From NCBI GenBank assembly GCA_964187785.1, contig OZ076420.1, positions 36,208,001 to 36,272,000 on the forward strand: a DNA stretch of 64,000 nucleotides, written 5' to 3'. The translations under genes and the position numbers were made by a program. This stretch comes from Amphiscolops sp. MND2022 (taxonomy: Eukaryota). Each line of letters opens with the position of its first letter. Positions within the stretch are counted from its first letter, which is position 1. Positions 16,132-50,047 of this stretch are shown here, piece by piece. Under the pieces are notes generated by a model. That model made no database searches and was not told the origin of the DNA. It saw only the letters and a list, made by a program, of their open reading frames with translations.

Positions 16132-16299
16132 CTAAAATAGCATCAATAAATACTAGTTGAGTCCCTTTGCACTGAAAATTTATAATCTGTCATAGAATAT
16201 ATTAGAACTTTCACAATCTCAGGTCGAGCTTTTTCGCTTGGCTCATTACTGTTTGGTTTCCTTTTCAATCATTAATTCATATTCCAAATTATTCCAGGT

Positions 16300-20339: not shown

Positions 20340-23300
20340 ATTTTTGGAGCCACATAAATTCCGAAACATTACCAACGCTGACGAAAATATACAGCGAAAT
20401 AGTCCACTGGAAAGCCGTCCTTTACACGATCAGCAAAAACAAGACAGGCTTTAAGTTCACTGATACTATGAACACGGTACTCTCAGGAACTTCAGACAGA
20501 CCTGAAAAAGCTGAAATAGCATTGATTGCAACAATGGTGATGCCCCATCTAATCCTTGCTAGAAGTAAAGACGGTAACGATGGATCCATCACGAAGACCA
20601 TCGGGAGATAGTTGGACCAATGGCTAAACGGGAACTTCATGGATCTTTTTCTGGAAGCCAAGGCACTGCAAGAACGTCTGCCCAAAAAGTCGAAGAAAGA
20701 TCACGACGAATACAAAGAGTTCGACAAATACATGACAACAGGCAGAATATCAAGCGCCATACGATGCCTATCAGAAGACGTAAAAGGTGGCAACCTTTCC
20801 ACGACTGAAAAAATCACTGTCGATGGGAAGACCAGGACTGTTCTTGATATCTTACATGAAAAACACCCCAAAAGTCAACCATGTAACCCTGCCTTTATCG
20901 AACAAGACCCTAGCAACGCCTTACCATACCATCCACAGATATTTGAGAGAATAAACGCTGCTTGCATCCGAAAGTCGGCGATGAAAACCAACGGAAGCCA
21001 TGGACCATCCGGACTGGACTCTCAAGAGTGGAGAAGGCTCCTTACGTCATTTAAGAACTCCTCCAGTGACCTCTGTAAAACAATCGCCAAGCTCGCCATT
21101 CGAATTTCAACAGAAAAGCTTCCCTTCTTGATGGCCTAGAACGCATGTCGACTAATTGCACTTGATAAGTGCCCCGGCGTACGGCCAATTGGAATAGGTG
21201 AAGTTCTGCGTAGAATAATCGGCAGAAGCATTATGAAATGCATTAAGCGAGATCTAGCTCTCCTAGGCAACAACACCCAAATGTGCCTCAGGCAAAAATG
21301 TGGGATTGAGCATGCCATCCATGCTCTTCGGAAAGCCTATGAAAGCCCTGAGGTTGAGGGCATTCTGCTAATCGATGCTCAAAATGCATTTAACAGCCTC
21401 AACAGAGAACTAGCGCTGAAAAATATCAACAAACTGTGCCCCTCCTTATCCCAAGCCATCGGGAACTCGTACTCCACGCCATCCGACCTGTACATTAACC
21501 GGAGCACAGTAAAATCTCAAGAAGGTACAACCCAGGGCGATCCACTGGCCATGGCCATGTACGGTATAGCCATTCTTCCTCTCATTGAACGAGTAATGTC
21601 TGACAACGTCACTCAAAAATGGTATGCCGATGATGGAAATGCTGCAGGATCAATTCCTTTGCTGTCAAAGCTATACCACGACCTTAAGGAGATTGGACCT
21701 CATTTCGGTTACAAGGTCATCAAATGCCATCTCATTACAAAACCCGACTTCGAACAGAGAGCAAGAGATTTATTTGCAAACGAGGACGTGGAAGTAATAA
21801 ATGGCCATAGAGTCCTTGGCTCTGTAATCGGAACTGAGGAGCGCTGCCAAGAATTTTTCGACGAAAAAAGCAACACTTACTCAAAACTGCTGAAAAAGCT
21901 ATCAAAGCATGCAAAGGTCGCACCCCAAAACGTTTACAAAGCCTTCACATACGGGGTCCAACAAAAACTTACCTTTATTACCCGTATCACACCCAAATCC
22001 GAAGACCTAATCGAGAAAACTGAGAAGTTTATCACCGACGACCTCATACCGTCATTGGTCAGCCACCCAACATACAATGAGAAATATCGAAAAATATTCT
22101 CGCTTCCTGTTCGTGAAGGGGGCTTCAGCATCCTCTTACCCGAGGACAGAGCTCACGAATACGAGCGGTCACTGAAAATAACTAAACCCTTCGAAAATAT
22201 GCACGATCACACTGACATCGATGCAGAGCAAATGCAAATCGCCAAAAACATCAAAAGAGAAAAAAACCGAAATGTCAAAATCAAAAGAAAACGAAATCGA
22301 CGCTCTACTCACAGAAGACGAAAAGTACGCAATAAAACTGGCCAAAGAAAAGGGCGCCTCCTGCTGGCTCAATGCCCTGCCGCTTAAGAAATATCACTTC
22401 GACTTAACAAAAAGTGAATTTCGCGACGGCATAGCGCTGCGATACGGATGGGAACCAGTTAAACTTCCGAGTAACTGTGCTTGCAACGAACCATTCACAG
22501 TATCCCACGCATTGCACTGCCCTAAAGGTGGTTACACCCACATCAGACACAATGACATCCGTGATTCCTTCGCCAATCTCTTGAACGAAGTATGCGACGA
22601 TGTCGAAATCGAGCCTTGTCTTCAGTCTTTGCAAGGCGAAGCCTTCGCAAATAGAACTACCACTACTGATGACGATGCCCGCCTCGACATTCGAGCAAAT
22701 GGTCTGTGGGAGAATAGATTCTCGAAGACTTTCTTCGACGTGAAGATTTTCAATCCTCACGCAAGAACATGTCCAAAAGACATTGGCGGAGCATACAAAA
22801 TGCACGAACAAATAAAAAAGCTAAAATACGAACAACGAATGCGAGAAGTCGAACATGCCACCTTCAATCCGCTCGTCTTCTCCTGCACTGGAGGAGCAGG
22901 CCCATCCGCGTCAAAGGTAATCAAGCGGATAGCAGGAAAACTGAGCGACAAAAAGGAGGATTCCTACTCGGACATCATCACTTTTATCCGGACAAAAATC
23001 AGCTTCGCGCTTTTGCGAAGTTCCATTCTGTGTATCCGTGGCTCGCGTTCGCTGCGTCGTCGTGGGATAGTTGAAGCCTCGATAGGAACTGTCGTTGAGG
23101 AAGGTAGACTGCTGATCTAATATAAAATGCCTTAGTGCTATTCACATGACGTGCTTTCAAGCTAGACATTTATATTTGATGCTATTTTTATTTTGATAAA
23201 TTTAGGAGCCTCCACTTGCTTAATTCAATTGATAATTTTTTACTAATAATTGTAAATTATTGGGGGTCGTCGTTGACACCTGGGGAGGCTTCGGGCTTGG

Positions 23301-23452: not shown

Positions 23453-23609
23453 TCAGACCTCCTATCCCATCGCAAGAGTGAAGATTTGAAAGTTCTAGAC
23501 GACTTGAAACAAACGCACCCGTCCACTGAACTCGAAGCCCGATTGCTTTCAATTGTCTGGCCGCCAGACTCTGGCGGCACAGAAAGAACTTGAAGAATCT
23601 TTATAAGAG
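23453..23609 (+). pseudogene. SGNH-like ORF, part 2 of 3
   Basis: SDLLSHRKSEDLKVLDDLKQTHPSTELEARLLSIVW is in frame with part 1 across the TSD. Carries a 14-bp footprint at about 23561-74. Confidence 0.65.
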
Positions 23610-24408
23610 TACAGGAAACCTATATAAGGAATTTTGGAAAAATTAAAAATGATTAAACATCAAACGTTCGGACAGATTTACGATGAGAAACAAGTTATTG
23701 TTATCAGAGGGTGGGCGGATGTAGGTCGGAGGAACGGGGTCGAAAATCAGAGTTAGTCCTCAAGTCGACATACGAAATTTTTGAATGGGATCGAAAGAAC
23801 TCGGATCGAAATTTTTATAACGTAGTCAGATATGTTATTATACCCCTAGTGCCCTGAATGCAGGAGCGAAGCGAAGCGGAGCGACGTGCCATATGGCCAT
23901 GCCTCAATGTTGCTACTTGGCGAAGGGAGCGAAGCGACCGAGCCATACAACAAATACGATAAAATTCGGCCGCATTCCATTCGATCCCTGCAATTCGATC
24001 AAAAGGTTCGACCTCTGTCCTTTCGACCAGAGAAATTCGACCTATTTACAGCCACCCGTTATCAGACATATTCGAATAAGGGTTGTCGGGGATCGACAAT
24101 CCTAGGTTAACCAACTGTCGGGGTTCGACAGTAAGATATCCAAAGTAAGTAAAAAACCGTTGGGTTTCGACGGACTGTATTGAGAAAATTTAAAAACCTT
24201 CAGATATAGGCGGACTTCGCCAGACTATCAAAAAGATAAAGGGTATTTAGGCGATATGAGAATTTGGCCATTTGCTTTTCGCCTATTGTCAAAATTGCTA
24301 GAGCTATATCTCACATTGAATACATTCACAAATTCAAATAAACATTTCTTCTATCTGGACATAGAATTAATTTTTCTATAACCACGTTTTCGTATTGAGG
24401 ACGTTACA
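23610..24408 (+). repeat. 5' LTR (about 441 bp plus an inserted MITE)
   Basis: Aligns to 37390-37828 once 23709-24066 is removed. Confidence 0.9.
23709..24057. mobile_element. Mutator-type MITE, copy 1
   Basis: Imperfect TIRs GGGTGG..TAGGTCG. 9-bp TSD GTTATCAGA (23700-08, 24058-66). Absent from the 3' LTR. Confidence 0.88.
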
Positions 24409-24409
24409 G

Positions 24410-24421
24410 TGGTGGCAAGGG
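24410..24421 (+). promoter_or_regulatory. Primer-binding site (possibly tRNA-Leu)
   Basis: TGGTGGCAAGGG 1 nt after the LTR end. Resembles the complement of the tRNA-Leu 3' end (TGGTGGCAGCGG). Confidence 0.6.
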
Positions 24422-25165
24422 TTCTGGAATCCATAAATCGCAAAATAAAAAAAAACCATCATCTGAAAAGAAAAACACTTTTCCAAAATCTGAAAAATTT
24501 TCCCTCTCATCAAAAACAATCTTCAACGACTTAGGCATTCCAAATAGTGCCAGACCCGAGACTACGATCCAGACAACAAAAGTTAGTAATTTTCGGACTC
24601 TACGTAGTGGAGTTACCCTAAGCGTTAGAGTCGACTAAAAATTAGAGAAATTTTGGTGATCATATTTTTCTCAAAAGTATTTTAGGTAAACTCTTGAAAA
24701 AAACGAGACCGAAAAACAACCACTGAAATTAAACTACAATTGGTAACGCCACCAATTGTTGAGACCGGATACAATCAGAAGTCACGAAGTAAGAGCAACA
24801 GAGCTATTGGATACGGTTGATTAAAACTATACCAGTACTTGAAGAAATCTATAGTTTAAAACAGATTCTCAACCTTTAGTTTGTTACAAATAGTTATTCA
24901 ATGAGCATCACTGCTAAGATACGACTATACAGTGCGAGTCGCGCAAAGTGAAAAAACAAACTGGTGAGGAAATAAAGAAAAACTATGAACAATATTAAAT
25001 AAAAATTATATCTCGAAAAAGGAATCAGTGGGTTCCATTGACCCCATAAAAAGCAGCTAGCTCTTGTTAGTTGGTCATTTTCGCGGAGCTAGTTGAAAAC
25101 CAAAATTTTTTTTAAGAAAAAGGAACACAACAAATTAACTAAAGTGTCGGGTTGATAGCAGAACA

Positions 25166-26170
25166 ATGGCTACGGGTACTTCCAAGATGTTATTACCGGG
25201 CTTTTCACTGGTTCCAATGACATTGAAAGCTACATAACTCATTTCGAGCTGTTGGCCCATCTCCAAAAATGGAAACGAACAGAGCGGCGGAACGGAAACG
25301 AAGTTGAAATAGATGAACGGCCGCACTATTTTGCACTTCGGCTCCAAAAACCAGCAATTGATTTCTACCGTACGTTAACAGACGCCCAAAAAGGTAGCTA
25401 TGATGAAACTGTGAATGGTTGCAGAACTCATTACACTGAGAAACCTGTGGTGTTCCGGGGACGGCTAGCAAGACGAATACAGCACCCCAGAGAAAAACTA
25501 ACTGATTTTTTGGGGGATTTGCAAGGTTTAGCTATGAAAGCGTACCCAGGGGAGTCGAATGAGATACGGGACCACCTAGTTGTGCGTGGTTTTTTGGAAG
25601 GGATCCACAACAGGCAAGTTAGACTTGATTTGAGAAAAAGCCTAGTTGACGCGGAACTAACAATTGAGCGGGTACTAGAGAAAGCGCTGCATCTTGAAGC
25701 TGTCACGAGAATTGAGGAAAAGGAAAAGGAGCCCAGAGTTGCTGTGCTACAACCTGACAACACAGAGAGACTTATTAGTTCTGTGAATCAACTTGTTGGG
25801 TCTTTGTCACTCTCGCGGGATTCGCGAAATGACAATCGCAAACGAAATTCAGAGAGAAAGAATTTCTGAAGGAGTAGCTCCAGGGATAGTTATGCCAGCA
25901 GAGGTATTGGGGATCGGGGAAGAAAGGGAAGAGGTAGAGAGACGAATAGAATCCCAAGATTCAGGACCACAACTCCAGGAAGATCCCCGGGGTTTACAGG
26001 GAAGATCTCATTCACGAGAGAGGTTTCCAGAGACTGATCGTGAAATGGGATCCCGAGAGGGAAGTTGTAGTATCTGCGGGCATAATGGACACTTGGCGAG
26101 AGATTGCAAAAACGGTTTCAAGTGTGGTAGTTCACAGCATTTCAAAAAAGATTGTCCGTTTTTAAACTAA
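25166..26170 (+). pseudogene. gag: gag, copy 1 (two CCHC knuckles, frameshifted)
   Basis: Capsid-like RRIQHPREKLTDFLGDL. Knuckles CSICGHNGHLARDC and (F)KCGSSQHFKKDC. Ends TTT TTA AAC TAA (slippery site at 26161-67). Confidence 0.88.
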
Positions 26171-28803
26171 GACAGGCTAATCTGGAAGTGGCCCCACATT
26201 TGCCTAACTGTAACATGGCCATAATGGGAGTAACAACCAACGAGAACACAGAGAAAACTCAAGCTTTGTATATGACATTCCTCATTTAAGGTAAAATGAC
26301 GAAGGCACTAGTAGACAGTGGAAGTAGCGTCTCATTAATCAGTTGGTCTTTCCTAAACACACTGGGTTTCAGTGGAAAAATGGAAAACTACAATGGGAAA
26401 GTTTTAACAGCAAATAAAACACAGGTAACAGTGAAAGGAAAAGCAGAGCTGATTGTGCAGTTAGAAAAGTTTTCACCCGAGCTTCAGGTTGGTTTACTGA
26501 TATCTTCGGTGGACATTTTGATTGCCTATTGGGACTGGATTTTCTCACAGAACTCGATTGTATTTTGTATATTAAACGTAAACATCTTTTCTGCGGTAAG
26601 ATTAATAAGACATTGGAATTGAAGTCCGGCATGCAAAACACGCGTACCATGTTTTTAATTGTCAGCTCAACACAAACTATACCTTCCAGAAGCGAAAAAC
26701 TGCTCGAATGTGAAGTACGGGACGAACAAGGAACACGTGTAAAAAGTTTCCAAGGATTAGCGAATCCTATAGAATCATACCAGACGGCAACAGGGTTATG
26801 GGTAGCACAGACACTGGTGAAAGACAATGAAGGGTATTGTTGGATACGACTTTTGAATATCCACGACGAGGATATTGTGACGTACAAAAATTCCCGGGTC
26901 GGGAATTTGGAAGAAACAGAGCTTGAGCAACAAGTGTTTTCACTTCAAGCAAATGAATCAGCTGGAACTTTCACTGAAAGTTTCAATTTTGAAAAACACT
27001 TAAACATTAACAGTGTTCATTTGACAAGATATCAACTGTACGCGGTAAAAAGACTCTGCCAAAAGTACGAGAAAATTATTTCGAAAAACTCGAAAGATCT
27101 AGGATTTAACACTCAAATAGAACATCAAATCAAGCTCAAACCAAACGCTCAGCCGTTTCGTAGAGCGTATGGAAATATGAGTTTTGACAAACGAAAAGTC
27201 ATGAAAAAAATTGTCGAAGGATTAGCGGAAGCTGATCTAAAAACACCAACCCATTCGAACTGGGCAGCACCCAGTATTTTGGTACCAAAGAAAGACGGAT
27301 CGTACCGTCTTGTAGTAGACTATCGTGGACTCAACAAACAAATAGAGGAGACATGTTGGCCGCTGTCTAGAATCAACGACGTGATTGATTCCCTTGAAAG
27401 GAACATGTTTTTCTCGAGCATTGACTTGACATCGGGATATTTTCAAATGGCTCTGAAAGAGGACAATCAGAATCTTACCGCCTTCATCACGCCTTTGGGC
27501 CTCTACAAATGGAAGCAGTTACCCATGGGACTCGCTTCTGCGCCAGGGGCTTTTCAAAACTTGATGGAGCTGAATTTCAGTGGGTTGTCATACGAAATAG
27601 CGCTTGCTTACCTAGATGATATGATCGTGTTTGATAAAAATTTTGAGGAGCACCTAGAAAGATTGGAGCTTGTTTTCGGAAGACTAGAGAAAAGTGGATT
27701 GAAAATCAAAGGATCAAAATGCAAAATTTTTCAAAAAAGAATATGTTTTTTGGGGCACGTCATCTCGGAAAAAGGAGTGGAAGTGGACCAAGAGAATGTG
27801 AAAGCAATAGAGAAAATGAAAGCACCCACCAATTTAAAGGAAGTGAGGGCAATCCTGGGATTAGTAGGGTTTTATACGAAGTTTATTCCGGGTTTCGGAA
27901 AAACTTCAGAACCCCTATATCACCTTTTGAAAAAAAAACAAAAAGTTCGTCTGGACGAACGAATGTGAAAGTGTTCTGAAAGAATTTAAAAACAAACTGT
28001 TGACCGCGCCTATACTGGGTTACCCCAACAACCGAGATGATTTTACGCTAACTACAGACGCCGCTTTGACAGGAATTGGTGCCATTTTGACACAGAGACA
28101 AAACGGGGTGGATAGAGTAATTGCATATGCCAGCAAAACGCTCAATAAAAGCCAAAGAAATTACTCAGCAACAAAAAGGGAACTTTTTTGTGGTTGTGCA
28201 TTTCACAAATCATTTCCGAACGTATCTGTTGGGGCGGAAATTTGTTATTGTAACCAACCATCAGGCCTTGGTTTGGTTGTACAGTTTCAAGGACCCTGAA
28301 GGCGTGATTGCATGGTGGTTGGAGAAATTGGGACAATTTGACTTCACAATAAAACACAGCGCAGGAAAAGACATCCCACATGCGGACTGTTTATCAAGAG
28401 TTCAACCTGAAGAAGAGGACACCGCAGCCGTTATCGCTGCATTAACATTTGAAAAAAAAACGTTCAAGAACAACCAAAGAACCCTTGGATGTTACTCCAG
28501 AACACGGACAGCAGAAAGTTTCAGAGGAAGCAACAAGAAGATACAAATCTGGCGAAAGTTTTCTCATGGCTCAAAGATAAACAGCGACCGGACAGAAGGA
28601 GCATATCCGGGGCGTCTAAAGAATTATGGAAGTATTGGGTCAATTTTGAGAATCTTTCTGTCATGGATGGAATTATATATCGGAAAAAAAGCTGGATATG
28701 TCAGGAACGGTTGTGCAGCAACTAGTTGTTGCTGAGTCGCAAATTACAAATATTTTACCATTACGGCACGCGTCTCCGTGTACGGGCCACCTGGGAATCG
28801 AGA
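26171..28803 (+). pseudogene. pol: pol, copy 1 (PR-RT-RH, truncated at the start of IN)
   Basis: ALVDSGS protease, RT (VVDYRGLN, LPMGL, YLDD), RNase H (LTTDAA, ADCLSR). Confidence 0.92.
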
Positions 28804-31452
28804 AATTAAACTACAATTGGTAACGCCACCAATTGTTGAGACCGGCTACAATCAGAAGTCACGAAGTAAGAGCAACAGAGCTATTGGATACGGTTGATTA
28901 AAACTATACCAGTACTTGAAGAAAACTATAGTTTAAAACAGATTCTCAACCTTTAGTTTGTTACAAATAGTTATTCAATGAGCATCACTGCTAAGATACG
29001 ACTATACAGTGCGAGTCGCGCAAAGTGAAAAAACAAACTGGTGAGGAAATAAAGAAAAACTATGAACAATATTGAATAAAAATTATATCTCGAAAAAGGA
29101 ATCAGTGGGTTTCATTGACCCCATAAAAAGCAGCTAGCTCTTGTTAGTTGGTCACTTTCTCGGAGCAAGTTGAAAACCAAAATTTTTTTTAAAAAAAGAA
29201 ACACAACAAATTAACTAAAGTGTCGGGTTGATAGCAGAACAATAGCTACGGGTACTTCCAAGATGTTATTACCGGGCTTTTCACTGGTTCCAATGACATT
29301 GAAAGCTACATATCTCATTTCGAGCTGTTGGCCCATCTCCAAAAATGGAAACGAACAGAGCAGCGGAACGGAAACGAAGTTGAAATAGATGAACGGCCGC
29401 ACTATTTTGCACTTCGGCTCCAAAAAGCAGCAATTGATTTCTACCGTACGTTAACAGACGCCCAAAAAGGTAGCTATGATGAAACTGTGAAGGGTTGCAG
29501 AACTCATTACACTGAGAAACCTGTGGTGTTCCGGGGACGGCTAGCAAGACGAATACAGCACCCCAGAGAAAAACTAACTGATTTTTTGGGGGATTTGCAA
29601 GGTTTAGCTATGAAAGCGTACCCAGGGGAGTCGAATGAGATACGGGACCACCTAGTTGTGCGTGGTTTTTTGGAAGGGATCCACAACAGGCAAGTTAGAC
29701 TTGATTTGAGAAAAAGCCTAGTTGACGCGGAACTAACAATTGAGCGGGTTCTAGAGAAAGCGCTGCATCTTGAAGCTGTCACGAGAATTGAGGAAAAGGA
29801 AAAGGAGCCCAGAGTTGCTGTGCTACAACCTGACAACACAGAGAGACTTATTAGTTCTGTGAATCAACTTGTTGGGTCTTTGTCACTCTCGCGGGATTCG
29901 CGAAATGACAATCGCAAACGAAATTCAGAGAGAAAGAATTTCTGAAGGAGTAGCTCCAGGGATAGTTATGCCAGCAGAGGTAATGGGGATCGGGGAAGAA
30001 AGGGAAGAGGTAGAGAGACGAATAGAATCCCAAGATTCAGGACCACATTTCCAGGAAGATCCCCGGGAATACAGGGAAGATCTCATTCACGAGAGAGGTT
30101 TCCAGAGACTGATCGTGAAATGGGATCCCGAGAGGGAAGTTGTAGTATCTGCGGGCATAATAGACACTTGGCGAGAGATTGCAAAAACGGTTTCAAGTGT
30201 GGTAGTTCACAGCATTTCAAAAAAGATTGTCCGTTTTTAAACTAAGACAGGCTAATCTGGAAGTGGCCCCACATTTGCCTAACTGTAACATGGCCATAAT
30301 GGGAGTAACAACCAACGAGAACACAGAGAAAACTCAAGCTTTGTATATAACATTCCTCATTTAAGGTAAAATGAAAATGTATTTAAGGTAAAAAAAAGAA
30401 TGTTTTTTGGGGCACGTCATCTCGGAAAAAGGAGTGGAAGTGGACCAAGAGAATGTGAAAGCAATAGAGAAAATGAAAACACACACCAATTTAAAGGAAG
30501 TGAGGGCAATCCTGGGATTAGTAGGGTTTTATACGAAGTTTATTCCGGGTTTCGGAAAAACTTCAGAACCCCTATATCACCCTTTGAAAAAAAAAAACAA
30601 AAAGTTCGTCTGGACAAACGAATGTGAAAGTGCTCTGAAAGGATTAAAAAACAAACTGTTGTCCGCGCCTATACTGGGTTACCCCAACAACCGAGATGAT
30701 TTTACGCTAACTACAGACGCCTCTTTGACAGGAATTGGTGCCATTTTGACACAGAGTCAAAACGGGGTGGATAGAGTAATTGCATATGCCAGCAAAACGC
30801 TCAATAAAAGCCAAAGAAATTACTCAGCAACAAAAAGGGAACTTTTTGTGGTTGTGCATTTCACAAATCATTTCCGAACGTATCTGTTGGGGCGGAAATT
30901 TGTTATTGTAACCAACCATCAGGCCTTGGTTTGGTTGTACAGTTTCAAGGACCCTGAAGGCGTGATTGCATGGTGGTTGGAGAAATTGGGACAATTTGTC
31001 TTCACAATAAAACACAGCGCAGGAAAAGACATCCCACATGCGGACTGTTTATCAAGAGTTCAACCTGAAGAAGAGGACACCGCAGCCTTTATCGCTGCAT
31101 TAACATTTGAAAAAAAAACGTTCAAGAACAACCAAAGAACCCTTGGATGTTACTCCAGAACACGGACAGCAGAAATTTTCAGGGGAAGCAACAAGAAGAT
31201 ACAAATCTGGCGAAAGTTTTCTCATGGCTCAAAGATAAACAGCGACCGGACAGAAGGAGCACATTCGGGGCGTCTAAAGAATTATGGAAGTATTGGGTCG
31301 ATTTTGAGAATCTTTCTGACATGGATGGAATTATATATCGGAAAAAACGCTGGATATGTCAGGAACGGTTGTGCAGCAACTAGTTGTTGCTGAGTCGCAA
31401 ATTACAAATATTTTACCATTACGGCACGCGTCTCCGTGTACGGGCCACCTGG
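28804..31452 (+). repeat. Internal direct duplication of leader-gag-RH with a PR/RT deletion
   Basis: 28804 onward repeats 24729 onward almost base for base. At about 30370 it jumps from the PR start to the RT end. Confidence 0.92.
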
Positions 31453-33442
31453 GAATCGAGAAAACCTATCACAGAGCGCAAGAACGATTTTTTTGGCCAG
31501 GCATGATAAGGGACGTGAGAGAATGGGTTAATAGTTGTGATAAATGTCTTAGAAGGAAAGGAACACCGCAAGAACATCGCCACAGTCTCACTACATGGCA
31601 GGCCAGTCACCCTTTCTGGCAAGTATCATTGGACGTCATAGGACCTCTCTCTGACTCTCAAGGTTGTAGATACATTCTCTTAATAGGAGATCAATTTAGT
31701 AAATGGTATGAGGCCGTGGGAATGTCGAATCAGGAAGCCAAAACGGTTGCCGGCGCTCTAGTTAACAAGCCGGGAACGGCCCAAGTCGGCGCCATATCTA
31801 AGGCTCAAAAATAGCAAAAGGACTTCACAGTGTCAAGTATTCTCTTCTACAGTACCCGCGTGAGGAAAAATTTAAAAAAATCCGATTTTTTTTGAATTTT
31901 TTAAAAATTTTTTTGGTCTCCCGTAAGTCGCATAGTGCCGAAACATGTAAAATGGGGCCCTTTGGAAGTTTTTTAACATCCATTCTTTTGCTAAATAGAC
32001 AAAAAAATGAAGGGTGGACCCTTTGGAGATATTTGCGAAAAAAGTCTCACAAAGCCGAAAACAATTTGCACAAAAAACTTTGATCAAGGACGGGACTCGA
32101 ACCCACGTCCTTCTGCTTGGCAGACCTCAAAAAGCCTAATTAAGCTCTACGCCAAGTGCCGCAGTGATAGCTAGCGTTGCGGTTACTGTTAGTGCAGTTA
32201 CTGTAAGTCAGCTCAGCTATTTATAACTCTTTATAAAATCTGTCAGTTCGTTGGTCTTAAAAAAAGTCACTACTATAGTCTGCGTTTTTCTTCGAAAAGC
32301 GCCGAATAAAAATGGATCACACGTTTTGGGTGCCATGTCAATCTTCATAGTGATAAAGGAAGGAACTTCATGTCAGAATTGTTTCGGGAACTTTGTCGTA
32401 TTTTGGGTATCCAAAGAACGTCAACAACATCGTTTCATCCGGATGGAAATGCAATGATTGAGCGAACCAACAGGACATTTGAGGAGAGCATTTCTAAATA
32501 TGTGAGTGAACATCAGCATGACTAGAAAAACTACCTGCAATTGGTAATGATGGCCTACAGTTCCTCGGTACGCACAGTTACGAAATATAGTCCTGCATAC
32601 GTCATTTTTGGGACACCACTAAAACTGCCAATTGATTGTATGTACGAGACGCGTCATACAGAGTCAAATCTAACACCTAGTGATTTCATATTTAAAACAA
32701 GGCGTGAGCTACAGAAAGCACATCATCAGATCAGGATTCATATGTAAGTAGAACAAACTAGACAGAAAACCTACTACGATTACCGCGCATACGGGATCAC
32801 GTACAAAGAGGTACAGCAAGTTCTGGTCTTTTTCCCAACAGTAAAAAAGGGAGAAACAAAAAAGTTCACATCTTTCTACAAAGGACCTTACCTAATTGTC
32901 GAAATTATTAACGACCTTAACTTTCGGTCACGATGAGACAAAGAAAATTATTAAGGTGCATTACGATAGATTGAAACAATATAGGTGTAGGGAGCGAACA
33001 TCTGTCAAAAGTAACGAAACTAGCAGACAAAGTGAGTTGTATGAAAAATCATTCATGGAAGAAGTTGACGACGACTTCATTGAAGTTGAAGTCGAGCAAA
33101 CAAACGAACCGAAAAGGGCGGAACAGAGAGAAAACTTTCAGAATGAAAACCCTGAGACAGCTCATCCACACAATGATGCCAAAACCGTGGAAGAAGATCC
33201 TAACGAGCGACCGTGTAGCGAGTCTTCAAAGAAAGACGGAAGTAGCAGTCAAAGAGATAACTTCTTAACCGAAACAATTAAACAAAAAATCAAAACAAGA
33301 AAAAACAAAAAACATGCCACCACCTAGAGAAATGAGCACGCGTATCCGATCCGTACCGAAACGCTTTGCTGACTACTTTGTGTATAAGCCCGATGACGAC
33401 AATTTCGATACAGATGACATTTTTATTTCAGGAATTAAGTGA
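30407..33442 (+). pseudogene. pol: pol, copy 2 (RH, integrase, C-terminal extension)
   Basis: H..GH..C..C zinc-binding motif, VSLDVIGP, LHSDKG and IERTNRT (DDE), GPY. Split by the HINE insertion. Ends STRIRSVPKRFADY..TGA at 33440-42. Confidence 0.9.
31765..32308 (-). mobile_element. Helentron-associated non-autonomous element (HINE/DINE-1-like) with a tRNA-like core, inserted in integrase
   Basis: Splits ALVN(K)WITRFG. Subterminal inverted repeat TCGGCGC, terminal hairpin GCCG-GGAA-CGGC, A-run target without a TSD. B-box GGTTCGAGTCC on the minus strand near 32095. Confidence 0.75.
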
Positions 33443-33448
33443 AGCACA

Positions 33449-35431
33449 ATGGGAAGAGGAAACAAACCTAACAAAGAGGGTAAACAGGTACTAGTGTTCT
33501 GCGCGTTCATGGCAACCTGTTGGAATATCACAATGTGCGAAGAAATAAGAACAGTGGGATATGACTTCGAGCAAATTGTGACAACATCAGTGTTTTCTCT
33601 TTCTGAACAAGAAGCTGGATGTGCTCGAGAGTCGAGAACAAGAAAGAAAGTAACGAAGGTTACGATTATTTTTCATGAAAGCAATGAAATAGAGTTTAGG
33701 TTTTGTCACTATCAAGCGTCATATACAGTACAACACATAAAGAAATCCAATGTTTACGATGACGGATTATACTTACACCAAGAATCGAAAATTCTACTTA
33801 CGTTTTACATCTTGTCGATAGAAACGTGTCAGTCTATATGGACTGGAGAGGGTTTCAAGATACCGGGTTTCGGTAACCAAGAATTCAAACTTAGCACTGC
33901 TGAATTAAACAAGGTGACAAGTGACAGGACAGAAAACACGGAAACGTTTGACGACTCAGCAGTAATTATGAAAGGAAAAGGGCGTGGAAGTGGCTATGCA
34001 TATCCTGTAGAGCGGACCACACCTCTTGGAGAAACAATCGTTGGTTCTGTTATGATCAACGCGCGTCTAGCAATAGGCAAAGTTTACGCTAGAAAAAAAT
34101 GCACGTGGACGAGATTCTATTCACTTGGAAAGTCCCCGTCGGTAATGAACAATCACGGATTGAAATTGAGGAGGACTTTGAACATGATTTTGTAGTTTAC
34201 CTTACCAAAAATGAAACGGATTGTAAATGGTCAAAACTGGTTACCATAGTGGAGGAGAAGGAAGTAGTCGAATTCCGTGGGCTGAAGAGTACTTTATTGG
34301 CGGGTTTCATTAACACTGACAAACAGAAACAATTCGCACTTGAAATGGAAAATTCGCCCACTATAAAATGCAACAAAACCGTGCATCCTACAATAATACA
34401 AAACGTTTACGTCATACTTGACAACTGGGATTTGGATTTTCATGAAGTCAAGTCGGTCGATGCTTCTATGCTTTTCCAAAGTCGATTGGAAATAGTATAT
34501 GCGCGCGGAGTACAAGAGACGGAGGATCTTTGGGTAGAAATAGACGTTTAGAATTGCAAGATGGACCATCTCATGGAGCAATTGAAATTGTCACTCATTG
34601 AGTATGGTGTTAGGAGTCGGAGGTGTAGGGGTGCATGTGGAGCGAGCAGGCGGAGTTGTTCACCTGCATCGATGCGCAAAAATGGAAGTAATGGTGATCG
34701 AAAACACCTTTTGCACTGAAGAGGTACCAGTACGCCTAGGTGGAGGCGGAAACTCTGTAATAAGATACATGCATCCGAGTACACGAGTTTTCTATACTAA
34801 CTACACAGTGACTGAATGCAACCCTATTTATCCCAATTTACTGAAGTTGGCAAACGGTACGTGAATAACATACGGGAAAAGAATAGAAAGAGCCAGACTG
34901 GAACCAACACCATTTTTTGATGATACTAGACATGAAATGAGACCCCACGAGTTCGTACGGCTCAAAGAAAACGGACGTTTCACGATGGAGGATCTGTGGA
35001 GGAGTAGCAGAGCAAGGGCCTTGAGAAACAGTCGAACTACAGTCACAGGACGGGAAATTTACTTAGGTCCACGAGGAGAATACGGCAATGCAGAATACTT
35101 TCATCTGAATTTGCCAAGTAGACAGCTGGGTTTCAGCTGGAGCGTTCTCAAGTGTTTTGAGAACGCAAAAAGAGAAACGTTATTTGTATGGTGGATAGCG
35201 AGAGAAATCGCGCTATCTATGTTGACTTTGATGCTTTTCGGTACGCTTTTCAGATTTTTATACAAATTGTTTTTTATGATACAACTTAAGAAGCTAGGAA
35301 CAACCACCAGGTTCGCTTTAAGACCTTTCAACCCGTTTTACGAGTATAATAAGTACCTTGCTGAAGTCAAGAGTCTTAAGGGAGTGCATGCTGAAGAAGA
35401 GCAATCAAATATAGATGAAAACGCAGTGTAA
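33449..35431 (+). pseudogene. env: env-like class III fusion glycoprotein (chuvirus G / herpes gB-like), about 660 codons, disrupted
   Basis: Signal-like VLVFCAFMATCW followed by TVGYDF..SVFSL....GC. GGVVHLHRCAKMEV..FCTEEVPV..YMHPSTRV..C motif. C-terminal TM segment. Several stops and frameshifts. Confidence 0.75.
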
Positions 35432-35470
35432 ATTAGCAGCGTATAAATTTTCCAAATTAAAATTGAAAAC

Positions 35471-36193
35471 ATGCTGGTTGAAGTTTTTTTGGTCAGAGAT
35501 GGACGGAGTACGAGTACATGAAAATGTCTACACCTTCCTGAACTGTATCAAATTGAAACGGAGGTATCTACAGGACTTTAGAGAGTGCAGAGATGTATTT
35601 CCGGGCATCGGAAAGTTGCCACCGAAGACACGCTCGCTGCCGCTAACATCAAAAACAGGGCAGATGTTACTAATCCACAACTGATCGGGCATCGACAGGA
35701 ACTGGATATGGCGAAAGTAAAAATTGACTCGTTGGAGGAACAACTCCAGTCCGGGGAGAAGCATATCAACGGGGAGCGAGAAGAGCAGCGGAGGAAAATT
35801 CTCGAACTTGAGTTCGACAACAGAGTGCAGCGAGAAAAAATACGAAGGCTGGGGGGAAATCTCGAGCGCCAAAAGATACTTGTGAAAAGTGAGAGAAACA
35901 AAGCCAGAGTAACGGAAAAATTTATTAGGGAGCTGAAACAAAAAAACTTCATCCAACGTACGTTCACACCGTATGAGATTCTTTTCGTAAAAGATGACGC
36001 AGACGTTGAGGATATCAAACGTTATTACAAAAAATTAGCTGCCTTAACTCATCCTGATGCTGGCGGATGTGAGGAACACTTCAAAACAATCCATAGGGCG
36101 TATCTTATTCTGAGTAACCAGAATGCAAGAAACATATACGACACGTTCGGGTTAGAGAGGGCAGAAGAAGAGTTAACCCGGAGAGCTAATTGA
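35471..36193 (+). pseudogene. J-domain protein 1 (N-domain, coiled coil, C-terminal J-domain)
   Basis: TPYEILFV..DIKRYYKKLAALTHPDAGGCEEHFKTIHRAYLILS..RNIYD is a canonical four-helix J-domain with HPD. ATG 35471 is in frame with two premature stops. Confidence 0.88.
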
Positions 36194-36395
36194 AGTGACT
36201 AACTGAAATGAACTGTTATTTTTATAATTCTTTTCGTACTCTTGATTTTGAAAAAATAATGATAATCATAATAAAAAAACTGAGACACAAAGTTCGCTAG
36301 GTGGGAATCACCTAAAAAGGGGGTAATTAAAGTGTGTGCACTTTAAAAAAAAAAGAAACAAGGTGAGAGTCACCTATTGATTGAACCATTTGATA

Positions 36396-37316
36396 ATGAA
36401 CATGTCGAGTTCGACAAATTCCATGTCTAGCGGGTATCGCTAGGCACCGTCTCAGTTGTTTTAGGCGCAGTAATTATACTTTTATACTCAATTGTGGTGC
36501 TGATTTTGGTGTTTAAGCATGCATCCGTCACCTGGGGACATCGCCTACTACCTGCCCTGCCTGAAGTTTTTGTGGTGAAGTCTCAGATGCCTTCTGGAGT
36601 GTTCCTGGTGGAAGACCTAGTCAGCAGAACTCGGAAAGTTGCAGCAGCTGACACCTTCTATCCAGTGACGCTGGTTAGGAGAGCTGAGATTGACGACGAA
36701 GGACTGTCAGTACTGCGAAACAAAAATGCTGAACTGATGACGGAACGGCAATCTTTTGTTTTTCAACTGGATGCTCTCAAAGCTGAGATCCTCAGTTGGC
36801 AGAAGAAAGCAGACATCATTGAAAGCCAACTACAACTCCGGAAGGAGGCAGCAAATCAGCGGCAACAATCCTTGACTGAGTACAAGGAAACGTCGAAGAA
36901 ATTGAGGCGACAAGTGGACAGCCTTGAAGCTGACTATGCCGCAGCGATAACTGCAATAGAGGAGAGTCGCAGTCGAGAACAAAACTTGGTGGAGGAGCTG
37001 CAGTTGCAGGGCGAAGCTATCAATGGTCTCAAGAGGGAACTGGAAACCAGAGAAACCTTCGAAATGGGCGACAAGCTGACGCTGTACGACCAACTTATGG
37101 TGTCGTCCAATGTTTCAGTTGAGGCCATTGCAAAAAGATTTAAAAAAACTCAGCCTGTTCTGCCACCCAGATCATGGAGGCTCCTACGACGTGTTGGTTT
37201 GGCTTCAGAAGGCACATCGGATACTAAGTGAACCCGAGGCAAGACTCCTATACGACGCTGAGGGATTTGAGGCAGCAGAGGAGTTTCTCAGTTTTAAAAA
37301 CAACAGCAAAGACTAA
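36396..37316 (+). pseudogene. J-domain protein 2 (TM segment, N-domain, coiled coil, J-domain)
   Basis: TLYDQLMV..AIAKRFKK joined across a one-base shift in an A7 run (37142-48) to LSLFCHPDHGGS..LQKAHRILSEPEARLLYD. An N-terminal hydrophobic stretch needs a one-base shift near 36433. Confidence 0.82.
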
Positions 37317-37389
37317 AGATTTGCGTGTTTTAATGTTTGCTTGTTTATTTCTTCTAAACGGCGAATATTTTATCATATAGAGGGGGCAA

Positions 37390-37828
37390 TATAGGAAACC
37401 TATATAAGGAATTTTGGGAAAATTAAAAATGATAAACATCAAACGTTCGGACAGATTTACGATGAGAATCAGATTATTGTTATCAGACATATTCGAATAA
37501 AGGTTGTCGGGGATTGACAATCCTAGGTTAACCAACTGTCGAGCTTCGACAGTAAGATATCCAAAGTAAGTAAAAAACCGTCGGATTTTGACGGACTGTA
37601 TTGAAAAAATATAAAAACCTTCAGATATTGGGTGACTTCGCCAGACTATCAAAAAGATAAAGGTATTTAAGCGATTTGAGTAGTTGGTTATTTGCTTTTC
37701 GCCTATTGTCAAAATTCCTAGAGCTATATCTCACATTGAATACCTTCACAAACTCAAACAAACATTTCTTCCATCTGGACATAGAATTAATTCTTCTATA
37801 ACCACGTTTTCGTATTGAGCACGTTACA
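37390..37828 (+). repeat. 3' LTR preceded by a polypurine tract
   Basis: AGAGGGGG just upstream (about 37379-86). Homologous to the 5' LTR. Confidence 0.9.
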
Positions 37829-37832
37829 AGAG

Positions 37833-37932: not shown

Positions 37933-40900
37933 GTAAGTTTAACTGTGTTGTTTGATTTTGTTTGGAGTGCCTTCGCAACCTTCACTGGTAGGAAGGGGCT
38001 CAGACGATTTCTCAATATTACAGTTATTCGATCTGCGATCTGTTTATCTTTTGTTAAACTCTTTTACTCTTTGAGAATGGGAGACAAAGCTAGAAACCAG
38101 TCAACGAAATATCCATGCGGTACTTGTAATCTTGAATGCAAGGATGGTTCAGTTTCCGGTTTTTAATGTGGTTGTTGGTACCACGCCTGCGATTGTTCCG
38201 GAGTTGCTGCAAATGTCCTTAGATGTCTGCAAAACACCTCGGGACTTATTTTGTTGTGTAAAAACTGCAAAGACAGTGGTAAGGATCGGGTGAGCGGAAA
38301 TAGGTCGAAGGAACGTGGCCGAAAATCAGAATCAGTCGTCAGGTCGACATACAAACTTTTTGGATGGGATCGAAACAACTCGGATCGAAATTTTTATAAC
38401 GTAGTCAGATGTGTTCACATACCCCTAGTGCCCTGAATGCAGGAGCGACGCGAAGCGGAGCGACGTGCCATATGGCCATGCCTCAATGTTGCTACGTGGC
38501 GAAGGGAGCGAAGCGACCGAGCCATACAACAAATACGATGAAAATCGACCGCATTCTATTCGATCCCTGCAATTCGATCAAAAGGTTCGACCTCTATCCT
38601 TTCGACCAGAAAAATTCGACCTTTTTACAGCCAGCCACCAGTAGGGATCTGATCCGAAATGGACCAGACGATAGCAATGAAATCGGCAGTAAGTTAGCTT
38701 GCATACAAAAGCAGTTAACTGAACAACAACTGAGTGAGAACAAGCTAGAAAACACAGTGCAGAAGATACAGCCTTCAGAAGTTGAAGAGCGAATACCGGA
38801 TTTTGAACCAAAATTGGAGAGAAAAATCAATTTAGTCATCGAAAAACAGCAGCAGATTCCTGAGCAAATCAAGACATCGTGGCAAAAATCAATGTACCGC
38901 CTCCGATACCAAATATGAAGTAGATAATGAAAGAAACTCTGCAACAGCAGGAACAAGAAAAGAAGGACAATGCGAAGCGTGAGAACAATCTGGTACTCTT
39001 TAATGTTCCAGAAAGGAAACCCCAAGGAAAGAGAAAATGAGGACCTACAAGTCTTTAATCAATTTTGCGCAGAGGGTTTAAGGGTTGAAATGGATGAAAG
39101 CCAAATAGACAAAGTAATACGACTTGGGAAAATTAGCAACGAAGACGCAGCAAGACCGAGACCACTAAAAATTGTCCTTAAAGAGAAAAAGGATAAAGTA
39201 AATATCTCCAGAGCATTGAGAAATTTGAAGCAAGCAGAATTGCAATTTCAACGGATTAGTGTTTCTCATGACTACTCAAGACAGACCCGTGAACAAATAA
39301 AGTCAATGATTGATGAAGCTAAAAAGAAGGATGGAGAAGACTCAATAAACTACAGATATACCATTAGGGGAACTGCAACTCAATTACAGGTTCAAAAGCG
39401 CCGCAGAAAAACAGATACAAACGCTGCCGCAAATGAATTCTGACTAAATTCAATCAATGTTTTATTATATAATGTACAAAGCCTGATCGATTTGAACACA
39501 AGGATTAAATTTGCTGACTATGTCTACAGACTTGATTTTGACGTTTCCCTTTTAACTGAGGCATGGCTCACTACTCACATTGAAAATGCGGAACTGTTTC
39601 TTCCCGATTATGATATTATACGAGGTGACAGACCAACAGAATCAGAGGAACTGAAGCAGGTACAAGGCCACAAATCAACTGAATCAGATGCGTCTCGCCA
39701 TGGCGGTGTATTGATAGCAGTGAAGAAAACTATCAAATCCGAGGAAGTTAGTGTTGACGAATTACCTCTACCAGTTCAATCTTGACTTCGCTTTACTAAA
39801 CTGATTGGCTTAGAACCTTTGTACGTTGCAGTTCTCTACAATCCTCCGGGAAAAAGGAAATACCGGATATCTATTGAGGACTTACAGAAGTTATTGCGCT
39901 TCTCTAAGGAAACGTGCTCCAAGCGTCTCCTCTTTACCGGTGACTTCAAAATGCCTCGCACTAATTGGAGTTCCTACGATTCTGTCGATGATCATGAAAA
40001 TCAGATCGCTTCGCTAGTGTTTGATTTGAACTTAAAACAATACATTGATTTCAATACAACAAAGAAAAGCTGTCTTGATCTGTGTTTTGCAATGAAGACT
40101 CAATCAAAAATGATACAAAGCTGTGCGGAAAGCTATCTCGGTTCTCAGTCCATTTTCCTATCACCATCAATGTGTCCAGAAACAGTAAAGTCCCAGAGAA
40201 ATTGTCAACGAGATACTTTAGTTACTGCAATTGTGATTTCGATGCGTTGAATGAAGATATCATTGCCAATCCATTCGAACCGTACTGCTATAGCAATGTG
40301 GATGTTAACACGAATCTCTGGTATGAATGGATTTTTCAATTGATCGGAAAATATGTTCCCATCCGAACTAAAAACAGGCAACTATTGCCTCCGTGGACAT
40401 CTGCTGGGACATCACATCACATGAACATGATTAATGCAGAGCGAAGAAAACTGCGGAAAAAAGGACTGTGTACGTCTGAAAAACTGAAAAGGCTAATCGA
40501 AGAGTGTGATCAACTGCAAACAAATGATAGAGTCGATTACGAACGAAAGATTTTTGCCAGCAGACTCAAATGACGAATTTTCAAATATTTCAAAAGCCTG
40601 AAAAGGGAGAGTCTACCGCCAGTTATAGAATCCAAAGAGCCTGAAAAAGGCAGCTGCCACAGATCTTGAGAAGGCAAACCTATTCAACAATTACTTTGCT
40701 GCGGTAGTGACTGACGATGATTATGAATACTTCCAACCAAGCGAAAGCATATTTACGGGGAAAATGACATCAAGATAACGGAAGACTTGATAAAAACAGA
40801 GCTACGGTCTTTTTACATCTCGAAGATCAGAGGTCACGATTCGATTCCACCCATATTGTTTAAAAAATGCGGGGATCAATCGCTACGTCCCTTCGAACTT

Positions 40901-42425
40901 TGTTCAATATTATCAAGCGATTGCGCAACTTACCATCTGCATGGAAGACTGGAATTGTCAGTCCGATATCCAAAGATGGTGACAAAAGAGAGGTTTCGAA
41001 CTACAGGCCAGTTACTCTCCTGAACATAATCTCAAAATCTTTTGAAAAATTCATATTTGCACCAGTTTATACTGCGTCTGCTAGTTTAATGAGTAGTTTC
41101 CAATTCGGTTTCAGGCTAAGACGTTCAGTTGTACTGCAATTATTCTACAGCTTATCTCATATTTACTCACACTTGAGCTCGAGTGACTCTGTTAATTTAT
41201 TAGTCCTATTTGATTTCTCTAAAGCGTTTGATAAAATAAAGCATAGTATCCTGATGAAAAAGTTGCTGCAAATTCCCATCTCTAAGGCATTATAACAATA
41301 CAAGAGCTAATACAAGTTTACCTATTGGGAAGAACACAGAAAGTGCGAGTAGCTGACCAGTTATCGAATGAGCGGGCTGTAACATCTGGAGTCCCACAGG
41401 GATCGGTGTTGGGACCATTACTCTTCTTGATTTATATAAACGATCTCCCCACTGTTGTTTTCTCATCGTTGGTTTTACTAATAGCCGACGATTTGAAAGA
41501 TTTTCAATGGAAAAGCTGAACAAGAATCCTTAGAGAAACTACAAATCAACTTACAAGCCCTTCACAACTGGATTGTGCAAAATCATCTACTATTCAATTT
41601 GAAAAAGTGTTCAATCAGCAAATTTCAGTTCGGCAGAAATAAGAACACTCGGGAAGGAGTTTGTTTTATTATGGAGGGTCGAAGTTTAAACCAGAAAAGC
41701 CTTGTTCGTATCTGATGATAGACGAATCACTAAACTGAACCAAGCACGTCAAAGTAAGAGTTGGGAAGGCAGCAAAATCTTTCTCTCTGCTAAGAAGAAG
41801 TACGTCCCCGATCATTTGTACCCAAAGTAAAGCCCATCTCTACCGAACAATAATACCAGCGTCGTTGTTTTTTGCATCCGAATGCTGGGAACTAAAAAAA
41901 AACTAGTTTCAAAATCATTGAAAGATTCAAGAAAAAAGTTTTGAATTGGATTTGCGGGAACTTGGATTATAAGGACGCTTTGGTCCAATCAAACTTATTA
42001 CCACCACTCTACTTTAAAGTCCTCAAAGACCTTTTATTTTTCAATAACTTACTGGAAGGAAGATACAATTAGGATTTTTCGAAAGAATTCAAAATCCACA
42101 AAATCACAAACAGCGGTAGAACGAGACGTGTTGTGCTTCCAGACACTAGATATGAAATACAGAGGCAGCAATTTTGGTACAGAATTCGATTCAGAATAAA
42201 CGTCGTGCAAAGATCTCTCGATTTCTTCAACCCGGAGAATCTCAGGAAGAAACTACTTGAATATATGTGGATGTATTTTGACAGACATTACACTGAAATC
42301 AATCCCTGTACTTGGATATTGCTTATGTGTGGACTGTGGTGCCAATCCTGGATTGTAATAGCGGGGTATGATTCTCCAGTGGCATATCCAGGAAGCCCTA
42401 TTTATAATAATACTAATAAATTTCT
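37933..42425 (+). mobile_element. CR1/L2-group LINE, degraded
   Basis: ORF1 from ATG 38077 has a PHD finger (CGTC..C..WYH..C..CKNC), a coiled coil and an RRM-like region (NNLVLFNV, RPRPLKI). ORF2 has APE (LTEAWL, GDFKMP) and RT ([28 protein letters not shown]). TAA-rich 3' end. Boundaries approximate. Confidence 0.88.
38288..38640. mobile_element. Mutator-type MITE, copy 2, inserted at the end of the LINE PHD finger
   Basis: Homologous to 23709-24057. 9-bp TSD GTAAGGATC / GTAGGGATC. Confidence 0.88.
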
Positions 42426-49003: not shown

Positions 49004-49777
49004 TGTCGCAACCTCATGGTTGCTCTGGACCTGTTGTGCAAGAGTGAAAACGAGAACAACTGATGCAGCCCACGGAGACAAACTTGCCCTAATGAAACTT
49101 TGCAAACTGTCTGAACCCCCTTTTTTTGTCTCATTATTTGTTCTAGCTGTGAGTATATGTCATGTAAATATTTGGCTTTGTATTTTTCTCTTCTTAATGT
49201 GTAGAGGTGACCGTAAATTAAGATTCATTTATCTTAAGTGTTTTCTTGATTCTTTACCTTTGATTATAACCTAATTTGACGACTCATTTCGAAGAGTTTG
49301 AAATGTCTTCATGAACGTAAATTGAAACTAACTTGATACGTGACTTTTCTGAACATCATATATGCGTCACTGTGCGGAACTGTGAAAACGAATATACTTC
49401 ATTGTGCTGTTTTTAAATATTCATTATGCGTTACCGTACGGAAATTTCCAGACGCATATACTGCATTATGCTGAATTTTGCTACCGCTTATGAGGCATCA
49501 TGCGGAAATCAGCAATTCACTTCATACAGTGATACAGTGCTGTTTATACGTCACTATGCGGAAAATCGCCGACGCACATGCGTCAACTTGCGTTTTCCTA
49601 CATTATTCGTTATACGGTGCTATATCATTGTTGCAGAGTAGAGATGCATCGATATGCGGAAAAACAAAAACGCATATGCGTTATTACGCGGATTTCCAGG
49701 GTTTTTGCTGTAGTTGTAGAATACTTGTTTTGCTTGTCATGTAATGTATATTTGGAGCTATAAATAGAATTACGACA
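49004..49777 (+). repeat. LTR (774 bp)
   Basis: TGTCG...CGACA termini. Homologous to 62465-63237. Rich in TATGCGGA motifs. Confidence 0.85.
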
Positions 49778-50047
49778 CGTGGCAATTTTTAATTAATTTG
49801 GAGACCATGACACCCATAAAAATGAGTGTAATCTCCACAAATTTCCTCGATGCTTGAAAGTTTAGAACCCAATCATTCCTTGATATAACTACCTTCAGAG
49901 GCAGTCGCATGAGGTCATACACCCAATCTTTGTAAAAACAGTTTTGCAATCAACTTTTGATCTAACCTTTCAACTTGTCTTCTCAAAGACCTTTGAATAA
50001 ATTCAAATTATTCCCCAGCAAACTCAACACCTTTTTCACTTGAGAAC

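Follow-up and report, generated by a model that had tools for sequence, protein, structure and literature searches.

Ty3/gypsy retroelements with an envelope gene and putative Hsp70 co-chaperone genes in at least two families of one genome

An env-bearing element with two J-domain genes

The 64,000-nucleotide stretch of Amphiscolops sp. MND2022 analyzed here (contig OZ076420.1, positions 36,208,001 to 36,272,000; "the window") contains a Ty3/gypsy retroelement at 23610-37828, in which paired long terminal repeats (LTRs), a target-site duplication (TSD), a primer-binding site (PBS) and a polypurine tract (PPT) are all present (Table 1). Between pol and the PPT and 3′ LTR lie an envelope-like gene (env) and two genes, J1 and J2, whose products end in J-domains with the His-Pro-Asp (HPD) motif. 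A preliminary description of the window had proposed this arrangement as three genes bounded by paired LTRs and the TSD AGAG. The LTRs, the TSD and the overall anatomy were borne out, but env, J1 and J2 are all broken in this copy; "three genes" is true of the family, other copies of which have open J1 and J2 frames, and untrue of the window copy.

The env-like gene starts at the ATG at 33449, and its pieces are interrupted by frame changes and in-frame stops. The piece at 34586-34861 matches PF24664 (Monjiviricetes_fusion) at 38.6 bits against a cut-off of 27, as do all three of the longer natural env pieces (window and natural range 38.6-67.5 bits). A C-terminal membrane segment is present in the last piece (hydropathy 1.73), and the decayed N-terminal piece in the window contains no 19-mer above 1.6. 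These matches identify the env of the window family as a predicted chuvirus/gB-like, class III-type glycoprotein.

The J1 start codon at 35499 is out of frame with the J1 body and opens just 61 codons, with an additional in-frame stop 5′ of 35582; the body itself (35582-36190) matches PF00226 at 1.8e-15, with HPD present. In J2, the frame opened by the start codon at 36519 extends for just 19 codons, and the body and the HPD piece lie in different frames. This second HPD piece, ending at 37316, scores 22.5 bits with PF00226 (1.2e-4), under the cut-off of 27.8.

The two LTRs differ by 5–8% (Kimura two-parameter distance 0.053 over 98 nt and 0.078 over 351 nt), and a 4.08-kb internal duplication takes in the leader, gag and part of pol. 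Together, the LTR divergence and the duplication indicate that this copy is old and dead; it is a decayed copy and not functional. The 5′ LTR is further interrupted by a 350-bp insertion resembling a miniature inverted-repeat transposable element (MITE), a second copy of which lies at 38288-38636; this insertion is a later event, outside the family's own structure. Neither the duplication nor the insertion appeared in the preliminary description, which also lacked the paralogy of J1 and J2 with their shared N-terminal domain and the second J-carrying family with a different env.

The order of the pol domains, protease-reverse transcriptase (RT)-RNase H (RH)-integrase, and the corresponding Pfam models (PF13650, PF00078, PF17919/PF17917, PF17921, PF00665 and PF22938) place the element in the Ty3/gypsy group (Metaviridae) by sequence. 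The rve and Integrase_p58_C domains were found in the pol of sister copies, and a CCHC knuckle (PF00098) was scored in the duplicate gag copy, at 29946-30242. The PBS is presumably tRNA-Leu-like.

Architecture, occurrence and conservation of J1 and J2

J1 and J2 align along their length, each comprising an N-terminal domain of ~50 residues, a long helix and a C-terminal J-domain. A structural model of the intact relative P0039 (37 sequences, mean pLDDT 87) contains three beta strands (residues 7-31), a long helix (57-138) and the helices of the J-domain (145-204). Its J part matches solved J-domains with a Z score of 10.7 and an rmsd of 1.8 over 69 residues, and comparable matches were obtained with a J1 model. 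PF00226 exceeds its cut-off in natural frames of J1, J2 and family D (see below), HPD is present in 20 of 21 alignment rows of natural J proteins, and P0018 carries the motif as HPDKGG, the form that the preliminary description attributes to polyomavirus T antigens. By fold, motif and profile, the J-domains recognized in the preliminary description are real. The N-terminal domain had no match in Pfam, PDB sequences or Atlas, and a fold search with the whole model barely probed it; it is unclassified, rather than shown to be new.

The canonical class A/B layout, with an N-terminal J-domain, a G/F region and a beta-sandwich, is not found in these proteins, as the J-domain is C-terminal after a coiled coil. 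No hydrophobic 19-mer above 1.6, and so no signal or membrane segment, occurs in any of the six natural J1/J2-type proteins, and we consider J1 and J2 to be, probably, cytosolic class C J-proteins. A membrane-anchored J2 was ruled out, the hydrophobic start of frame 36431 lying in the acceptor-like tract upstream of the start codon, as was a programmed frameshift in J2, natural relatives of which have a single open frame.

Genome-wide searches, which covered a eukaryotic assembly of 1.07 Gb, returned at least 150 matches to J1 (150 of 218 candidates scored) in identity tiers of ~90%, 75% and 57%, which we name subfamilies A, B and C. The loci were obtained by collapsing the match lists by hand, which retained 58 of the 107 env rows and, for RT/RH, 92 of 102; the rows left out are additional fragments at loci already counted. 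Most copies of the family carry the J genes: a J match follows within 3.5 kb downstream on the same strand at 43 of 51 env loci. Conversely, 43 of 84 J loci have an env match upstream; among the other 41 are decayed copies and no fewer than four loci with the scores of ordinary host-type DnaJ. J matches also occur within 12 kb of 27 of the 32 RT/RH loci of the element's own lineage, to which three rows below 55% identity were assigned by hand. Env matches of 30–43% identity with no J match nearby (G000:C4:68221070, C4:74338734, C4:35482478 and C4:35438907) are possibly sister lineages without J genes, or truncated relics.

Many copies are colinear throughout the region from env to the LTR. Two subfamily C copies contain gag-pol-env-J1-J2 between LTRs of 95.6% and 92.6% identity, the first of them flanked by the TSD GTAC, and the recurrence of this order in two divergent subfamilies indicates that the cassette is not a product of chance. 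With AGAG around the window copy and GTAC around a divergent subfamily C copy, the J genes do travel inside the element, as had been proposed. An independent insertion of the J genes was ruled out: no boundaries of their own were seen, and env-J1-J2-PPT-LTR is colinear in many copies. Open natural frames of 238-251 codons for J1 (L002-L005, L007, L009, L010) and 248-285 codons for J2 (L007, L010, L014) were found, and open J1 and J2 frames also occur among database proteins. The J cassette is a family trait. Many copies stand in tandem, with a shared LTR followed by a PBS, or carry local duplications of the env-J1-J2 end (L032, L036, L034/L035/L038, L003/L004, L005/L011).

Intact proteins of the J1/J2 layout were also found in sequence databases, and may represent further lineages or other species. 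P0039 and P0050/P0071, from Logan only, have best genome matches of 40% and 38%, respectively, whereas P0003 and P0018, each on a 10,100-nt contig in ENA, have best genome matches of 70% and 61%. Because P0039 and P0050 are just 38–40% identical to anything in the genome, the J1/J2-type family probably extends to other lineages or species. Metagenome scans for relatives with genomic context gave nothing or coiled-coil-only matches (L068 being a bacterial-type locus), and scans of viral contigs gave one chance match in phage-like DNA and otherwise nothing. Contigs of just 1–2 kb encode intact J1 and J2 proteins (P0075, P0089, P0091, P0093, P0012, P0067, P0069), and these contigs may be assembled transcripts bearing a single J gene apiece.

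A T-rich tract that terminates in AG lies upstream of each of the env, J1 and J2 starts in the different subfamilies. Under a strict acceptor rule, seven sites were found in 10.3 kb of a subfamily C copy, three of which are those directly 5′ of env, J1 and J2. This placement points to J1 and J2 probably being expressed from separate spliced RNAs.

A tree of 23 natural proteins separates J1 from J2 at 100/100, with A and C branches in each; the long branches of P0018, P0039 and P0050 are placed unsurely. The presence of A and C branches within both clades implies that the duplication predates the subfamilies and that both genes have been retained, showing J1 and J2, by their sequences, to be paralogues from an old duplication.

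Selection was measured by pairwise codon comparison of natural copies. Synonymous sites are saturated between subfamilies A and C, the proportion of synonymous differences (pS) being 0.8-0.9 for J1 and 0.73-0.76 for J2, while amino-acid identity is 55–58% for J1, 34–39% for J2, 49–60% for env, 76% for RT/RH and 78% for gag. The ratio of nonsynonymous to synonymous divergence (dN/dS) for J2 between A and C is 0.22-0.27 where dS is computable, below the value of one proposed earlier as a check on the J genes; within subfamilies, values are 0.5-1.5. The within-subfamily values are as expected for copies decaying after insertion. Low constraint within subfamilies together with conservation between them indicates that selection is seen in the replicating lineage and not in the relics, and the codon comparisons support purifying selection on the J genes in that lineage.

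A second J-carrying family

A control using J1/J2-like queries had found no J gene at any of 60 other gypsy RT/RH loci. This result was overturned by a Pfam search of the genome, in which 14 of the 60 more distant RT/RH loci have a J-domain 6266-6438 nt downstream. The search yielded at least 132 J-domain matches, with 150 of 248 candidates scored, and the other 46 RT/RH loci had no match among those scored. The 14 loci define family D, one copy of which was read in part, excluding central pol. It has 698-bp LTRs with 2 mismatches and the TSD CCAA, and shares its PBS and TATAG LTR start with subfamilies A and C; family D is a young family. Its gag is 34% identical to the window gag, and its RT/RH is 49% identical to that of subfamily C. 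Across the families, TSDs are 4 bp long (AGAG in the window, GTAC in subfamily C, CCAA in family D), and LTR termini are TA...CA or TA...AA instead of the usual TG...CA. LTRs start with TATAG or TACAG and finish with TTACA or TTAAA in subfamilies A, B and C and family D (window 23610 and 24408; L061; L072).

The layout of family D is pol-env-J-PPT-LTR. Its env frame of 808 codons contains a signal-like segment at 36, RPRR at 187 followed by a hydrophobic segment, and a C-terminal anchor at 692. The frame has no fusion-protein match in Pfam or PDB sequences, and by motif only it appears class I-like. The J frame of 373 codons has a helical middle, a C-terminal HPD J-domain (PF00226, 3.1e-10) and a Cys-rich tail, and lacks both a signal peptide and a membrane segment. 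At 11 of the 14 loci the J frame measures 366-382 codons (one has an internal stop), and a 1646-codon pol frame is present at 7 of the 14. Of nine acceptor-like sites in 4.9 kb, two are close to where the env and J frames begin; the first Met comes 99 codons into the env frame and 135 codons into the J frame.

No similarity was detected between the env of family D and that of subfamilies A and C, nor any homology between the N-terminal region of its J protein and the N-terminal domain of J1/J2 (probability 0.1). The dissimilarity of both env and N-terminal region leaves two histories: a single capture kept through an env swap with N-terminal turnover, or two captures in related lineages. Three J-domain matches that extend over the family D profile range and are unlinked to a listed RT match (G000:C2:70564248, C4:64860543 and C442:17546) are perhaps further D-like elements.

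Table 1. Features of the Ty3/gypsy element in the window, with the family D copy (genome coordinates) in the last row
Feature	Position	Strand	Remarks
5′ target-site duplication AGAG	23606..23609	+	identical to 37829-37832
5′ LTR	23610..24408	+	~450 bp minus insertion; termini TA...CA; 92-94% to 37390-37828
MITE-like insertion inside 5′ LTR	23708..24057		350 bp; 8-bp TSD GTTATCAG; empty site in 3′ LTR
Primer-binding site TGGTG..CAAGGG	24410..24427	+	same PBS after LTR in subfamily C and family D
gag, first copy, broken	25159..26170	+	
pol, first copy (protease, RT, RNase H), broken	26290..28735	+	PF13650, PF00078
Internal duplication	28802..31463	+	leader and gag of 24725-26299, RNase H region of 27733-28805; 98% identical
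pol, RNase H to integrase end, broken	30392..33327	+	PF17919, PF17917, PF17921
Splice-acceptor-like site	33417..33431	+	18 nt 5′ of env start; predicted from sequence
env, broken in four pieces	33449..35431	+	PF24664; C-terminal membrane segment; frames
J1, broken near 5′ end	35499..36193	+	PF00226 1.8e-15; 83% to open natural relative P0001
J2, two frame changes	36519..37316	+	J1 paralogue, same layout; open relatives L007, L010, L014, P0081, P0084
Polypurine tract	37379..37386	+	kept in sister copies
3′ LTR	37390..37828	+	pairs with 23610-24408
3′ target-site duplication AGAG	37829..37832	+	matches 23606-23609
Family D copy	G000:C4:16663458-16676052 (L072, L069, L066, L070)		and 13 further loci

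Related systems, candidate functions and neighboring sequences

Viral J-proteins, including polyomavirus T antigens and giant-virus and phage DnaJ, share the J fold and HPD with J1 and J2. Structure matches in BFVD comprise T-antigen fragments and J proteins of Mimiviridae and phages, over the J-domain only. Unlike these viral proteins, J1 and J2 carry the J-domain C-terminally, after a coiled coil and an unmatched beta domain, and reside in a reverse-transcribing element. Accessory genes behind env, expressed from spliced RNAs, are known from walleye epsilonretroviruses (orfA/orfB) and foamy viruses (bel), and encode cyclin-like or transactivator products. The duplicated accessory genes of the walleye retrovirus offer the closest layout, a pair of captured paralogues located between env and the 3′ LTR. 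The walleye and foamy viruses are Retroviridae, whereas the elements described here are Ty3/gypsy with putative co-chaperones.

Gypsy elements carrying a gB-type or F-type env are reported to be widespread and ancient (Chary and Hayashi 2026, PMC13524379), and the env itself is therefore not new. The gB-type errantiviruses of that survey, which comprises 1,512 elements, resemble the window family in their LTR-gag-pol-env order, their chuvirus/gB-like glycoprotein behind pol and their multi-copy occurrence, and its F-type env is likely the kind found in family D. As described in the consulted parts of the survey, its pipeline sought three open reading frames (ORFs) only, whereas one or two extra genes follow env in the elements described here. 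Its main text does not mention DnaJ, J-domain or chaperone, its seven supplements do not contain DnaJ, and five short motifs of our elements are absent from the supplements as far as cells of up to 400 characters show. LTR elements of bdelloid rotifers likewise contain captured genes between pol and the 3′ LTR, from spliced messages (Rodriguez et al. 2017, PMC5408684); their ORF3 types, in the consulted text, are a GDSL esterase, a DEDDy exonuclease and an env-like protein. These ORFs mostly replace env, in contrast to the J genes, which are additional to it, and the main text of that paper mentions no DnaJ, J-domain or chaperone. Mentions of DnaJ in the consulted parts of PMC9004415 and PMC9940879 concern host genes. 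The preliminary description knew of no LTR element with its own J-proteins, and we found none in the open literature; Repbase, GyDB, Dfam and most subscription journals lay outside this coverage. Judged from their sequences, the elements are of errantivirus type with accessory genes for predicted, self-encoded Hsp70 co-chaperones, and they belong to at least two distant families in this genome.

J1 and J2 are, with high confidence, selected accessory genes of the element, and quite probably act through Hsp70. Hsp70 docked on an HPD J-domain is triggered to hydrolyze ATP and so grips a nearby client; auxilin uses Hsp70 in this way on clathrin, and polyomavirus T antigen on virions. By analogy with established J-protein biochemistry, the C-terminal J-domain of J1 and J2 would dock Hsp70 and trigger its ATPase, the predicted coiled coil of 80 residues would oligomerize and act as a spacer for the J-domain, and client selection may fall to the small N-terminal beta domain. 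That client would most probably be the element's own Gag/Env particle, with host Hsp70 set to particle assembly, trafficking or uncoating, and J1 and J2 may divide own-particle and counter-defence roles. Three observations favor this client: in both families the J genes come after env, J1 matches env in its degree of conservation, and differences in the N-terminal domain coincide with differences in env and gag. The difference of both env and N-terminal domain between the families would fit a client that belongs to the element. We give an even chance to the reading as a whole, namely an errantivirus-type family of the form LTR-gag-pol-env-J1-J2-LTR with Hsp70 adaptors for its own Gag/Env particle.

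Several observations weigh against this reading. The presumed client-binding N-terminal domain matches nothing in the three collections searched, and 8 of the 51 env loci have no J match. Within subfamilies dN/dS is 0.5-1.5, and HPD is kept in only 18 of 23, 13 of 18, 13 of 17 and 4 of 6 distinct dead-copy segments (two of the J1 sets may overlap). In the window, only the env site passes the acceptor rule (1 of 6) and the J1 and J2 sites fail, and the rule was drawn up after the sequences had been seen. J2 diverges much faster than RT/RH, gag or J1, which fits an arms race with a host protein equally well. To our knowledge, most gypsy and errantivirus elements assemble without a J-protein of their own, and the need for one is not obvious.

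The main rival, favored by the fast divergence of J2, is counter-defence, in which the J proteins direct Hsp70 against a restriction or small-RNA complex of the host, so as to dismantle or degrade it, or sequester the Hsp70 needed for Argonaute/PIWI loading. The 34–39% identity of J2 between subfamilies A and C, against 76% for RT/RH, speaks for this role, as do the side-by-side retention of two paralogues and their position behind env with separate acceptors, which resembles that of complex-retrovirus accessory genes. The J-domain of T antigen is used to break up pRb-E2F, a precedent for such a role. Host J-proteins also act in the silencing of plant transposable elements (SILENZIO; PMC8616336, consulted in part). 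However, no signal of positive selection is measurable at saturated synonymous sites, J1 is no less conserved than env, and none of the domains identified in the J proteins is nuclear or nucleic-acid-binding; we regard counter-defence as possible, but hold it only tentatively.

A role in manipulating the host cell, with J1 and J2 altering the proliferation or stress tolerance of the producing cell, would fit their cytosolic adaptor layout and has a parallel in the position and duplication pattern of the walleye retrovirus cyclin genes, but no cell-cycle motif (LxCxE-like or other) was noticed, though none was specifically looked for, and we think it improbable. That the J genes are passengers, a captured host DnaJ fragment hitchhiking without benefit, might be suggested by the decay of every A, B and C copy examined, by within-subfamily dN/dS near 1 and by the lack of an identified host donor gene; open frames and HPD retained across saturated synonymous divergence, both paralogues kept in parallel lineages, each with an acceptor-like site, and an open J gene in a second family make this highly unlikely, and the codon comparison largely refutes it. 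The Env-folding role considered in the preliminary description, with recruitment of BiP in the endoplasmic reticulum (ER), would suit the placement of the J genes directly behind env in both families, but there is very little chance of it, since J1 and J2, with no signal or membrane segment in any of the six natural proteins nor in the family D protein, would not be expected to enter the ER lumen.

Returning to an Hsp70 adaptor for the element's own particle, we incline slightly towards a broader proposal. The elements would form a clade of enveloped Ty3/gypsy elements, with a shared PBS, TATAG LTR start and 4-bp TSD, and would be "complex" errantiviruses encoding Hsp70 co-chaperones as spliced accessory genes. 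The module would have been kept, or captured twice, across a change of env class, its N-terminal domain changing in step, and would occur beyond this genome; these would be the first LTR retroelements known to steer host chaperones by a J-protein of their own. If so, they would be an invertebrate counterpart of the complex retroviruses in a group otherwise treated as simple three-gene elements, and Hsp70 would emerge as a limiting or a contested factor in the biology of retroelement particles, with the 50-residue N-terminal domain pointing to the client. By hand assignment, 86 of the 132 J-domain matches in the genome, from the 150 of 248 candidates scored, lie in these elements, and J-carrying elements would inflate DnaJ family counts in gene annotation.

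Further transposable elements make the window as a whole a graveyard of transposons. A second LTR element, ~15 kb long, has LTRs at 49004-50536 and 62465-64000 (at least 1.5 kb at 91%) and an integrase core at 54269-54979, together with unexplained frames at 56105-57097, 59232-59780 and 61622-62329. A hAT-type transposase relic (13759-15150), two related non-LTR RT elements (16276-17754 and 20612-23120) and a relic resembling a long interspersed nuclear element (38931-41295) were also noted, as were a 32-nt tandem repeat at 57271-57517 and a perfect palindrome with 36-bp arms at 8721-8793.

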